Shown: positions 2,665-40,305 of the stretch, piece by piece | How positions within the stretch are numbered: the first letter of the stretch is position 1 | How the letters are laid out: each line of letters starts with the position of its first letter | NCBI GenBank assembly: GCA_951406725.2 | Contig: OX597819.1 | Location: 103,974,001-104,038,000, forward strand | Reading direction: 5' to 3' | Length of the DNA stretch: 64,000 nt | Source: Octopus vulgaris | Taxonomy: Eukaryota | Translations under genes and position numbers: made by a program | Notes under the pieces: generated by a model | Databases searched by the model: none | The model's input: the letters and a program-made list of their open reading frames with translations, nothing else | Told to the model about the DNA's origin: nothing

Positions 2665-2764
2665 GGCGTACAGAGCCAGAGGACTGCTTGGACAGGGCGA
2701 GACAAACATGTAAACATGCTGTAATTCTTCATCCTATAAGTACACCCGATAAGCATTTTTGCAG
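2665..2764 (+). CDS. Exon A1 (100 nt, phase 1-2): [32 protein letters not shown]
   Basis: tttctag|GG acceptor, TGCAG|gtaggt donor, 3 Cys plus PD motif. Confidence 0.85.
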
Positions 2765-38700: not shown

Positions 38701-40305
38701 TTGTGGGACTAAACAACAAACTGTTAAAAATAACTCCTGAATAATTTTGTAAATTCCAGAAGTATGAAAGGATCGTTATACATAGCAATATTTTGTCCTC
38801 AAAATGTAAAACATGATTAACTGGCTAGATATTTTGAAGTGGTACATGTATTTTTTTCAACCAGAAATTCGAAATATTGTCAAATTTAAGAATAATGATT
38901 GTTTTTGTTTGTTTCTTTTTTCAATTTGGAAATCATTGTTATCAATTTATTTTCGTCACCCAGGCGCCTGGTGGTATACAAAACGTGTGCTGAAAATCTC
39001 GAAGACAAACATTGTTTGGTATCATTTGAAAAAAAATTTGAAACTTATTGCCCTAGTAAGTTCTATTTTATTAATAATGAACTATTTGCAAAAACATAGA
39101 GTGGCTACGAACAATCTTCAAATGAATTAAAGTTTGAAAACAGGCTGTATGCTGTTCTTTAAATCTGCATGAAGTACTTCATCATTTGCAACAAAGAAAA
39201 TCAGAAAACATTCACACAAAAAGTATCGTGGTCGTCTTTTCAAACACGAAGTAATAGATGACACATGATAACACGGCTTAAGACCAACAGAAAATGTTTT
39301 ATGTTGCATCAGCATTTTAAGGGGTACAGAAATAAAATTTAAAATGTGTATATTTTTCAGAGATGGACAGCTGCCTTGAGAAATTCAAAAGATATTGTCC
39401 ACAAGTAGAAAAAGATTTTCCCACTGGTACACCAGATAGGGATTACTGCAAGTACGTATACTTCTTTTCCAACTTCTGTATTATTTTTGCATCAAACATA
39501 TACACGTTTATATATTTATTTATGCATCAGTACCATCAACAATTAATTAAATGTTTATTACATTGGTACAAGATTAGAATTATTTAGTTGATGTGTACTA
39601 GGTTCAATAGGAAACACCATTTGATTAGTGCTAACTATATCGATCTAGGAATGGCTCATACCAGTGAACCAAATTTATGCAGATCAATAAATATATAGGC
39701 AATTTCCGATATAGGCACAATTCCACAAATGTACGATTAGGGGAATAGTTTTTGAACGATTCTCATTTGTTTCTAAAAATATTATTTCATACTTTAGAAA
39801 AACCATATTAATGTTTGATCATTTCCAAAAAATTGTAAATCACATGTTTATGTATAAATATGATTAGTAAATATTTGGTTGCTTTTTTTAAATAGTAAAT
39901 CTTAAGACATCACTTCATTGCAATTTTCCATACGGAATTCACTAGTAATTTTTATAATTTAACCTTCATTACCGGAGAGCCACTGGGTCAGAAATCAGAT
40001 ATTAAAATATATTAATACTTCCTCTTTTAAATTGGAAATATTTTTCAAACTATGAAAATTACATACTGTAGTAATTTGTTTCAGAAGCTAAACAATATGT
40101 GTATTGCAAAATATTTTAAGTTAATACATACGTTGTGAGTTTAAACAAAAGTACATCGATTATCCAAAATATTACCAAAGATTTTCCCTTTTGTTCAATA
40201 ACTTTTCGTATTTCAGACGTATGGTCGCATACTCAAAATGCGCTTTAAATAAGAAACACAAGTGTGCACAGCACTTCGATAATCTGCATTTAATCCGATG
40301 TCGAT
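2665..40305 (+). CDS. Multi-exon gene (16 exons found, 5' and 3' ends unresolved) encoding a protein of 8 tandem six-Cys repeats of 60-64 aa, family unknown, probably extracellular
   Basis: 16 AG/GT-bounded exons with compatible phases splice to 1488 nt without a stop. Every A+B pair gives C-x7-C-x16-C-x8-C-x7/8-C-x11-C with invariant PD, R, CA and C-x3-F. Confidence 0.9.
3187..3545 (+). mobile_element. tRNA-derived SINE
   Basis: tRNA-like head (TGGCCTAGTGGTTAG ... TTCAATTCCC); related copies on the - strand at 26576-26869 and 41858-42168. Confidence 0.8.
3630..4560 (-). mobile_element. Decayed Helitron RepHel fragment (Pif1-like helicase)
   Basis: ORF 3629..3898 reads [25 protein letters not shown]...CLTHCELYV, matching the recalled Helitron helicase C-terminal motif QFPVRLAFAMTINKSQGQSL...FSHGQLYV; upstream extent approximate. 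Confidence 0.7.
5050..6059 (+). mobile_element. Non-autonomous Helitron, copy 1
   Basis: Begins A|TCTTTATATAT, ends with hairpin GACCC..CGGGTC and a degenerate TTAG; highly similar to 42758-43931 but lacks an internal AT-rich segment. Confidence 0.8.
6571..6662 (+). CDS. Exon B1 (92 nt, phase 2-1): [31 protein letters not shown]
   Basis: tcttccag| acceptor, |gtaaga donor, 3 Cys. Confidence 0.88.
8110..8209 (+). CDS. Exon A2 (100 nt): [33 protein letters not shown]
   Basis: ttttatag| acceptor, |gtacgt donor; overlaps the start of ORF 8133..8387. Confidence 0.88.
8885..10270 (+). mobile_element. Penelope-like element 3' fragment (GIY-YIG endonuclease plus tail)
   Basis: ORF 8885..9391 has CNCR..CPLDGSC..NVIYKC..FYI.ST..FKARY..H..SF, typical of PLE GIY-YIG domains; hammerhead motif downstream; right boundary approximate. 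Confidence 0.8.
9661..9740 (+). ncRNA. Type I hammerhead ribozyme motif
   Basis: TCCC-CTGACGA-AGG...CCT-GAAA-TGGCCA-TA-GGGA: stems I and II pair, stem III is palindromic, core intact. Confidence 0.75.
10280..10716. repeat. Compound (TA)n/(TACA)n microsatellite
   Basis: Seen directly; source of several spurious IY-rich ORFs. Confidence 0.95.
11020..11915 (+). mobile_element. CR1-like LINE 3' fragment, decayed
   Basis: [32 protein letters not shown] and [19 protein letters not shown], typical of the region after the RT domain; (TAAAA)n tail. Confidence 0.8.
11925..12695. repeat. Compound TA/TG microsatellite region
   Basis: Seen directly. Confidence 0.9.
12790..14700 (+). mobile_element. RTE-clade (BovB-like) LINE: APE domain plus start of RT, 3'-truncated and decayed
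   Basis: [70 protein letters not shown]; several stops. Confidence 0.9.
15198..15289 (+). CDS. Exon B2 (92 nt): [31 protein letters not shown]
   Basis: tcttccag| acceptor, |gtaaga donor. Confidence 0.88.
16190..16440 (+). mobile_element. Decayed SINE-like repeat
   Basis: GGTAAGAAGTTTG..AGTCCCACTGTGTGGCACGTTTGGCAAGTG head and ATGACTGAAACAAGT tail; similar pieces near 14730, 20960, 24700 and 37640. Confidence 0.55.
17364..17454 (+). CDS. Exon A3 (91 nt): [30 protein letters not shown]
   Basis: tcttgcag| acceptor, |gtacat donor; lies inside ORF 17234..17554. Confidence 0.88.
18443..18531 (+). CDS. Exon B3 (89 nt): [30 protein letters not shown]
   Basis: atttcag| acceptor, |gtatgt donor. Confidence 0.88.
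20785..20884 (+). CDS. Exon A4 (100 nt): [33 protein letters not shown]
   Basis: tttgtag| acceptor, |gtacgt donor. Confidence 0.88.
21870..22447 (+). mobile_element. 5'-truncated mariner, same family as 600-1887
   Basis: [20 protein letters not shown]; right TIR TTATGGAATGACCTGA followed by TA. Confidence 0.88.
22727..23130. mobile_element. Small Penelope-derived or retrozyme-like element with internal inverted duplication and triplet microsatellites
   Basis: 22727-22785 is the reverse complement of ~22960-23014; degenerate hammerhead ACAC-ATGATGA-AGGCTG..CAGCC-GAGA-CGTT-GTGT at ~23010-23055. Confidence 0.55.
23189..23280 (+). CDS. Exon B4 (92 nt): [31 protein letters not shown]
   Basis: ttttcttgtag| acceptor, |gtaaga donor. 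Confidence 0.88.
23881..23971 (+). CDS. Exon A5 (91 nt): [30 protein letters not shown]
   Basis: ttttgcag| acceptor, |gtacat donor. Confidence 0.88.
24977..25166. repeat. AT-rich palindrome (foldback)
   Basis: ~57-bp perfect arms (24998-25054 / 25075-25131) plus outer arms CCTTATAATTTAACACA / TGTGTTAAATTATAAGG. Confidence 0.9.
25180..25572. repeat. Compound TA/TG microsatellite
   Basis: Seen directly. Confidence 0.95.
26576..26869 (-). mobile_element. tRNA-derived SINE (head shared with 3187-3545)
   Basis: Reverse complement reads GTGGAGGCGCAATGGCCTAGTGGTTAGGGCAGCG..GGTTTCGATTCCCAGACCGGGCG. Confidence 0.82.
27430..27570 (-). mobile_element. Penelope-like RT fragment
   Basis: - strand translation [27 protein letters not shown] contains a YVDD motif. 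Confidence 0.6.
29397..29485 (+). CDS. Exon B5 (89 nt): [30 protein letters not shown]
   Basis: attccag| acceptor, |gtaaga donor. Confidence 0.88.
29520..30130 (+). mobile_element. Compound (internally triplicated) tRNA-derived SINE with target-site duplication
   Basis: Three units of GTTCTGAGTTCAAATTCCGCCGAGGTCGACTTTGCCTTTC..GGTCGAT..AAGTACCAG; 13-bp TSD AATATTTATTGAC at 29507-29519 and 30131-30143. Confidence 0.85.
30532..30622 (+). CDS. Exon A6 (91 nt): [30 protein letters not shown]
   Basis: gtcgtag| acceptor, |gtatgt donor; lies inside ORF 30492..30674. Confidence 0.87.
30810..32790 (-). mobile_element. Decayed CR1-like LINE (APE and RT remnants)
   Basis: - strand ORF 32450..32710 ([23 protein letters not shown]) is APE-like; [17 protein letters not shown] motif near 32000; 3' part resembles 11020-11915. 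Confidence 0.8.
34644..34732 (+). CDS. Exon B6 (89 nt): [30 protein letters not shown]
   Basis: attccag| acceptor, |gtaaga donor. Confidence 0.88.
36606..36705 (+). CDS. Exon A7 (100 nt): [33 protein letters not shown]
   Basis: ctttgcag| acceptor, |gtacgt donor. Confidence 0.88.
36719..37563 (-). mobile_element. Internally deleted Tc1/mariner (maT-like) transposon
   Basis: TIRs CAGGGCGCGATGAATAAACTGTC / GACAATTTACCCATCGCACCCTG with TA flanks; - strand [13 protein letters not shown] motif. Confidence 0.85.
38028..38467 (+). mobile_element. Helentron/HINE-like non-autonomous element
   Basis: Internal repeat GAATC(C/T)TTGTCCGGTACC..ATCGATCC and terminal hairpin TCCGCCTT-TACT-AAGGCGGA followed by GGTAATAA; class is inferred. 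Confidence 0.45.
38964..39055 (+). CDS. Exon B7 (92 nt): [31 protein letters not shown]
   Basis: cacccag| acceptor, |gtaagt donor. Confidence 0.88.
39361..39451 (+). CDS. Exon A8 (91 nt): [30 protein letters not shown]
   Basis: tttttcag| acceptor, |gtacgt donor. Confidence 0.88.
40217..40305 (+). CDS. Exon B8 (89 nt): [30 protein letters not shown]
   Basis: atttcag| acceptor, |gtaaga donor. Confidence 0.88.

Follow-up and report, generated by a model that had tools for sequence, protein, structure and literature searches.

A 64,000-nt stretch of the Octopus vulgaris genome (contig OX597819.1, here C6, positions 103,974,001-104,038,000; the whole stretch is called the window) carries most of a gene encoding tandem copies of a six-cysteine repeat. 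The gene is real and intact. The overall interpretation that we put forward, to which we give about even odds, is that its product is a secreted protein of nine modules, each a helical bundle like the N-terminal domain of RGM proteins (RGM-N; RGM_N in Pfam), and that it would work as a multivalent extracellular scaffold rather than as a co-receptor for bone morphogenetic proteins (BMPs).

A nine-repeat gene and its relatives

Exons were located by a six-frame motif scan of the 64,000-nt window combined with splice-site reading. Positions are those of the window unless C6 is given. Each repeat is split between an exon A, which holds the first three cysteines (C1-C3) and breaks off after the second base of the following codon, and an exon B, which holds C4-C6 and ends in phase 1. 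The exons of this interval are as follows:

2665..2764, plus strand: exon A, repeat 1 (C1-C3)
6571..6662, plus strand: exon B, repeat 1 (C4-C6)
8110..8209, plus strand: exon A, repeat 2
15198..15289, plus strand: exon B, repeat 2
17364..17454, plus strand: exon A, repeat 3
18443..18531, plus strand: exon B, repeat 3
20785..20884, plus strand: exon A, repeat 4
23189..23280, plus strand: exon B, repeat 4
23881..23971, plus strand: exon A, repeat 5
29397..29485, plus strand: exon B, repeat 5, whose residues are absent from the O. bimaculoides model P0001 (31-residue gap)
30532..30622, plus strand: exon A, repeat 6
34644..34732, plus strand: exon B, repeat 6
36606..36705, plus strand: exon A, repeat 7
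38964..39055, plus strand: exon B, repeat 7
39361..39451, plus strand: exon A, repeat 8
40217..40305, plus strand: exon B, repeat 8

The 16 exons between 2665 and 40305 join into 1488 nt with 48 cysteines, equal to 495 whole codons, or 496 when the split codons at both ends are counted. There is no stop in the coding frame, compared with 18 and 42 in the other two frames, and all 15 introns are GT-AG. A preliminary description of this region, made from the DNA letters alone, had reported this exon number, span, open frame, cysteine count and splicing, and all of it holds. The intron phases alternate 1-2-1, so that each repeat is a symmetric 1-1 module of two exons, which makes in-frame duplication of a repeat possible. 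Eleven columns are invariant in the eight window repeats, namely C1-C6, the PD pair, the R, the A of CA and the F, and pairwise identity among these repeats is 27-46%. The earlier consensus is thus right at these columns, but its Ala after C2 and its P of [YFH]P each occur in seven of the eight repeats, repeat 8 having V and repeat 6 having A. Likewise, the two glycosylation sequons noted before stand, and a third (NCS, end of repeat 2) had been missed.

The gene extends beyond this interval in both directions, and the number of its repeats is nine rather than eight. The additional parts are as follows:

C6:103965593-103965629, upstream of the window: coding part of the signal-peptide exon, with its ATG 8407 bases before the window start
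C6:103971758-103971857 and C6:103972381-103972466: exons of repeat 0, the ninth repeat, found with profiles of the window exons
45463..45510, plus strand: putative stop exon of 48 nt, completing one codon, followed by TAA and then 3' untranslated region
46305..46375, plus strand: putative last non-coding exon, with conserved acceptor, exon and AATAAA (at 46370)

The signal exon consists of an ATG and a hydrophobic stretch, ends in phase 1 and is homologous in three genes of C6; repeat 0 lies about 2.2 kb upstream of the window. The putative stop exon is supported by a homologous exon of the paralogue gene 3 (72% identity with flanks), which likewise holds a split codon and a stop, and it agrees with two O. 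bimaculoides models, P0001 and P0027, both of which end after one further residue. The acceptor, exon and AATAAA of the last exon are 73-84% identical behind genes 1 and 3 and behind a broken copy. The stop codon is 43 nt upstream of the last junction, which is inside the usual limit for escape from nonsense-mediated decay. A coding tail at 45463/46966 was ruled out, as its frame stops at once.

The complete model has 572 codons with a terminal stop only, giving 571 amino acids, nine repeats and 55 cysteines. The mature protein would have about 555 amino acids and 66 kDa, with a cleavage site read by eye rather than by a predictor. Past residue 20 the maximum 19-residue hydropathy is 0.64, indicating neither a membrane anchor nor a C-terminal glycosylphosphatidylinositol (GPI) signal. 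With the signal-peptide exon found, the protein is likely to be extracellular and secreted, in line with the location proposed earlier.

The preliminary description had made the case for a gene depend on spliced reads or a conserved orthologue, and such an orthologue exists in O. bimaculoides, LOC128248155 (XP_052824892.1; P0001), with 440 of 540 aligned residues identical (81.5%; 79.8% without cysteines). The gene had also been called hidden; the orthologue is in fact annotated, yet as an uncharacterised model, and each of its two models disrupts one repeat (P0001 lacks exon B5; P0012 is the other isoform). Each of the two exon motifs, taken with its splice site, was counted 8 times in the window and 0 times in 100 triplet shuffles; because these motifs were derived from the window itself, the orthologue is the stronger proof.

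Further relatives were sought among 1.84 billion representatives with a profile made from the A exons of the eight window repeats (E ≤ 0.001). It returned 11 matches, eight with the repeat and three (P0003, P0005 and P0010) that are unrelated repeats without the cysteine pattern and were discarded. All seven of the eight repeat-bearing matches that were looked up, as well as P0001, come from Octopus, though a profile of 29 positions is too short to establish a restriction to this genus. The named relatives, O. bimaculoides LOC128248155, LOC128248050, LOC106874482 and LOC128249887 and O. sinensis LOC118763774, are all uncharacterised predictions. A word-based homologue search recovered only three known family proteins and is too insensitive to judge the range of the family. 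The O. vulgaris record P0002 has peptides identical to C6 and joins non-adjacent exons of gene 1. No literature on the family was found by locus id or accession in full texts, or by topic in titles and the first lines of abstracts, in a search that did not cover supplements and most subscription papers; tables of octopus transcriptomes or proteomes may list the genes.

The gene therefore belongs to a family, which the preliminary description had not seen. The cluster on C6 comprises three intact genes, the window gene among them, and a broken fourth copy:

C6:103900066-103954900: gene 1, directly upstream of the window gene, 16 repeats, with a homologous signal exon
C6:104677000-104757000, minus strand: gene 3, about 0.7 Mb downstream, 11 repeats, orthologue of LOC128248050 (704 amino acids)
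C6:104627000-104656000, minus strand: broken copy, with in-frame stops in three of the five exons viewed and cysteines lost

A degenerate extra B exon lies near 103954775, at the end of gene 1. On another chromosome (C18), repeat matches extend from 15.99 to 17.29 Mb, of which 200 kb was read. The genes read there are short, use the same two-exon module and end in a hydrophobic tail, by which they are possibly GPI-anchored; some are near-identical recent duplicates. In an unrooted tree of 37 repeats (A and B exons paired by the finder, 59 columns, strong support on 9 of 34 branches), the C6 repeats cluster by position and not by gene, the C18 repeats fall on one side (98/91), and gene 1 expanded through its R7-R8 pair. 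The ancestor may have been C18-like.

The ratio of nonsynonymous to synonymous change (dN/dS; Nei-Gojobori) between paralogues at matched positions, with two gene 3 exons left out, was 0.73 (468 codons, bootstrap 0.58-1.0), 0.60 (410 codons, 0.46-0.81) and 0.69 (410 codons, 0.53-0.88). Without the cysteine codons the values were 0.92, 0.69 and 0.84, which agrees with the scaffold of conserved positions and variable surface that had been proposed. Considering that the octopus RGM exon differs by only about 20% between O. vulgaris and Argonauta, a split much older than that within Octopus, the window gene evolves fast.

Four sets of putative-RNA contigs were compared with positions 29200-48200. 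Among the 15 matches listed there was no exon-exon joint, and repeats dominated; low depth in the exon bins of this interval was equally present in exon-free bins, and the comparison speaks neither for nor against splicing. For 36600-40320 no RNA record was listed. This lack of spliced RNA among the matches listed, together with the one broken repeat in each of the two orthologue models, is what a chance pattern or a dead gene might produce. It is hard to reconcile, however, with 571 codons free of stops, canonical splice sites throughout, an orthologue of such identity, dN/dS below 1 and the absence of motif matches in 100 shuffles, and we find this explanation scarcely credible. The decayed neighbouring copy shows how a dead copy looks, in contrast to the intact window gene.

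We also considered a polyprotein precursor, cut to single 60-residue disulfide peptides, as a form of the venom or pheromone role raised in the preliminary description. Venom and pheromone families typically show a signal peptide, small disulfide modules in tandem, clustered genes and rapid divergence, as seen here. But the seven linkers between the window repeats (4-8 residues) contain no KR, RR or KK, the one dibasic pair that recurs is at C3+1/+2, within helix 2, and no toxin family was above the Pfam cut-off in 17 family proteins, which makes such a precursor improbable.

Fold and likeness to the RGM N-terminal domain

A model of orthologue repeat 3, built from a 46-row alignment (8 whole repeats and 38 B exons), reached a predicted local distance difference test score (pLDDT) of 91 and a predicted template modelling score (pTM) of 0.76, with helices at 4-12, 15-19, 29-42 and 48-58. 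The repeat is accordingly predicted to be a small helical bundle. The full orthologue model is all-helical too (pLDDT 62.5, pTM 0.26) and predicts a beads-on-a-string layout, the low pTM leaving the linker geometry unfixed. Both models agree with the mostly helical structure expected earlier. Three disulfides per module would pair C1-C5, C2-C4 and C3-C6, as judged by geometry and not read off a model. The preliminary description had recommended modelling one repeat and searching with it in Foldseek; the model is confident, and the search gave no match, as did that with the 540-residue model at E 0.001. In a wider structural search, the full model matched the RGMB N-domain on repeat 2 (Z 4.5, rmsd 3.8, 55 of 74 residues). 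The same search with the single repeat gave generic helical proteins (best Z 5.9), and RGM was not among the best 50 of its 1946 matches with Z ≥ 2. An Atlas structure search with the C18-type relative P0006, a poor model, gave TM ≤ 0.36. The modelled fold thus appears compatible with RGM-N and does not single it out.

The RGM N-terminal domain (PF06535; RGMA, RGMB and hemojuvelin; PDB 4uhz and 6z3m) is likewise an extracellular six-cysteine helical domain behind a signal peptide. According to PMC7354924, it forms a bundle of three helices held by three disulfides, and RGM proteins use its RGD loop, Leu103 and His106 to bind BMP2/GDF5. The octopus repeat shares with this domain the core D-x2-[YF]-C-x2-L-x2-Y-x2-C-x7-C and a phase-1 entry into the domain exon. 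In the window, the C3-x8-C4 spacing of this core is present in all eight repeats, and that between C4 and C5 is x7 in four and x8 in the other four.

RGM_N was listed for 7 of 10 family proteins, in two of them above the curated Pfam cut-off of 24.2 bits (P0007, 37.9 bits; P0004, 29.1 bits). These two scores are sums over four and two stretches, and such summed repeat scores need care because P0007 also drew unrelated families. The domain was further listed for four of seven additional family proteins, all below the cut-off and all isoforms of one gene, and for 6 of the 46 members of the single-repeat alignment; orthologue repeat 3 alone scored 14.3 bits. Single window exons gave no Pfam family (8 A and 8 B). 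When the repeat profile was run against PDB, four of the five matches were RGMB chains (best E 0.092), and phmmer of P0012 against PDB gave none. We then aligned 36 repeats from eight proteins with the RGM-N domains of 102 of 121 RGM proteins (19 removed by a spacing filter) using hhalign, which gave a probability of 44.6% and an E of 2.3e-4; the score was matched by none of 100 column shuffles and none of 100 shuffles with fixed cysteines. The window repeats scored 6.5-21.8 bits on the RGM-N profile, and for five of them no more than 1 of 200 Cys-fixed shuffles did as well. From these results we lean towards homology of the repeat with RGM_N, and probably what is set in tandem is an RGM-N-like module in remodelled form. 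The domain had been called unrecognised, which is true of the orthologue, below the cut-off, and not of the two paralogues above it.

Several observations weigh against this kinship and against the scaffold. The RGM_N score of the orthologue P0001 is 10.4 bits, and P0012, the second isoform, as well as P0027, P0006 and P0008, has no Pfam RGM_N row. The hhalign match spans just 28 columns, three window repeats are matched by 5-13 of 200 Cys-fixed shuffles, and the repeat, when compared directly with the RGM exon of the octopus itself, gave no significant match. The outer spacings are x7 (C1-C2) and x11 (C5-C6) in all eight window repeats, compared with x4 and x21 in RGM, and the octopus RGM N-domain is one intronless exon, whereas the repeat is split in two by a phase-2 intron. 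In the fold search the RGMB N-domain ranks 47th, below unrelated generic bundles (best Z 6.2), and amphipathic helices with similar cysteine spacing can converge. The high dN/dS, for its part, may reflect relaxed constraint rather than partner-driven change.

The shortness and probability of the match, the orthologue's score, the rank of RGMB among unrelated bundles, and the outer spacing and intron layout would all suit an independent six-cysteine helical domain unrelated to RGM_N, whose likeness arose because a single amphipathic helix, flanked by two cysteines, converged. Such a domain would not readily explain why RGM_N is the sole recurring family and tops the PDB sequence search, why its signal survives Cys-fixed shuffling, or why neuritin, a protein with the same central cysteine spacing, turns up as an Atlas lead. 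We regard convergence as having a sizeable minority chance.

Even if the module descends from RGM-N, the window gene is not an RGM, because it has neither an RGM_C domain nor an anchor. No family protein had a Pfam row for RGM_C, the autocleavage domain (control P0028, 88.5 bits), and the protein ends after repeat 8. RGM proteins carry one N-domain, RGM_C and a GPI tail, whereas the C6 genes carry 9-16 tandem copies without the RGD loop or the His. A separate true RGM gene is kept in octopus (C2:46.68 Mb, minus strand). Of the RGDLxxH motif this octopus RGM keeps Gly and Leu and has lost Arg, Asp and His, and Argonauta and some other invertebrate RGMs deviate too; as far as these residues tell, the way in which cephalopod RGM binds BMPs may be altered.

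Other families were compared as well. Neuritin (CPG15, PF15056), an Atlas feature lead of 0.80 for P0006 and below the 0.9 bar, is a small GPI-anchored six-cysteine helical single-domain protein, and vertebrate neuritin has a phase-2 intron right after the third cysteine. The C18 genes, with signal, domains and hydrophobic tail, resemble this layout, whereas the window gene has nine domains and no tail. No family protein had a Pfam row for NRN1, and no neuritin match was found in the O. vulgaris genome, which does not show its absence. Further Atlas leads for P0006 were two unnamed mollusc clusters of hypothetical proteins (0.90 and 0.89), without alignment, and the 27 kDa haemolymph protein family (DUF1397, PF07165; 0.78), without alignment or Pfam row; Atlas gave no usable match for P0001 76-204. 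P0006 had no Pfam row at E up to 10, GDNF included, despite its GDNF/GAS1 name in UniRef. As foreseen from the spacing, EGF, Kazal, Kunitz, WAP, ShK, CCP/sushi, chitin-binding type 2, saposin and attractin had no Pfam row in 17 family proteins and 46 alignment members.

Other elements in the window

Broken remnants of a transposase, presumably mariner-like by its motifs, lie at about 780-1810 and at 51319-51804. A broken LINE (endonuclease and the start of a reverse transcriptase), which we take to be RTE-like, occupies 12731-14398, within the intron between exons A and B of repeat 2. Fragments at 49238-50480 and 8885-9391 appear, judging by their motifs, to be of a Penelope-like reverse transcriptase and GIY-YIG. 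An inverted repeat (58054-58671 and 58906-59523) has 618-nt arms that are 100% complementary and include a 44-bp tandem array, with outer arms at 57754-57975 and 59599-59820; it is either a recent foldback element or an assembly artefact.

Possible function and significance

If the function of RGM N-domains had been kept, the protein would be a soluble multivalent trap for ligands of the BMP/TGF-beta class. RGM N-domains bind BMP2/GDF5 by the alpha2-alpha3 linker and helix 3, according to PMC7354924, and the invariant Phe of the repeat at C5+4 occupies the place of RGMB Leu103. Since even the octopus's own RGM does not keep the RGD motif, loss of the motif is not final, which makes it a weaker test without voiding it, and at least 13 TGF-beta-domain matches are present in the O. 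vulgaris genome. However, 95 of 102 RGM domains carry RG[DN]L..H and 100 of them carry Gly at C5+2, whereas among 43 B exons of the repeat these counts are 0 and 5, and none has His at C5+7; helix 3 of the repeat is ten residues shorter, and a surface that changes almost neutrally would be at odds with a ligand that is conserved. We consider such a trap decidedly unlikely. Modelling a single repeat together with octopus BMP2/4 as a dimer, without alignments, gave a score of 0.00, which speaks neither for nor against binding. The 13 TGF-beta-domain matches are on C4, C5, C9, C11, C23, C27 and C28, with a BMP2/4 orthologue on C11 and two equal-scoring copies on C23, 40 kb apart on opposite strands.

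The mature chain has an odd number of cysteines (55), the extra one lying within a CC at the end of repeat 0 and recurring in genes 1 and 3; it could serve chain dimerisation. With up to four His per window repeat and repeat numbers of 9, 11 and 16 among the paralogues, it might also suggest a protein that builds or cross-links some secreted matrix, be it mucus, an egg stalk or capsule, the sucker cuticle or a spermatophore, and that polymerises by the spare cysteine or by His-metal contacts. Structural repeats are typically homogenised, whereas these are 27-46% identical and position-specific across paralogues, and the short tailed C18 relatives resemble cell-surface proteins. A matrix role is therefore unlikely.

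In the scaffold interpretation that we prefer, a short, two-repeat, tail-anchored C18-like gene would have given rise to the gene by duplication of the symmetric module and loss of the tail. The cysteines, the PD cap and core residues would hold the fold, while the other residues vary almost without constraint and in a different way from one repeat position to the next. Rigid binding modules strung together would then put many distinct surfaces on one secreted chain, each module showing a different one to protein partners in a secretion, the haemolymph or the body surface. Since the genes are clustered, arise and die, change fast and have secreted products, candidate partners would be non-self, gamete or matrix proteins.

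A broader proposal, which we hold more tentatively, is that octopus freed and multiplied RGM-N into two clusters, one of anchored proteins with two to four modules and one of secreted proteins with 9-16, whose near-neutral or adaptive surfaces form a recognition repertoire, and that RGM-N, neuritin and DUF1397 belong to one ancient superfamily. This proposal, of limited probability as a whole, would mean that cephalopods built a multivalent growth-factor trap or a non-self or gamete binder.

What is new here is an expanded, fast-evolving family of secreted octopus proteins, apparently undescribed, for which a full gene model replaces a fragmentary annotation. According to a 2022 review (PMC10084454), the RGM N- and C-domains are not reported from other protein families; a true RGM_N link would contradict that exclusivity and would mean that a developmental ligand-binding module was put to new use in tandem arrays. 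Should the link prove false, the repeat would belong to no family and be structurally more novel. In either case, the family offers a 60-residue, sequence-tolerant disulfide bundle in some 40 natural variants, which should be easy to express and test.

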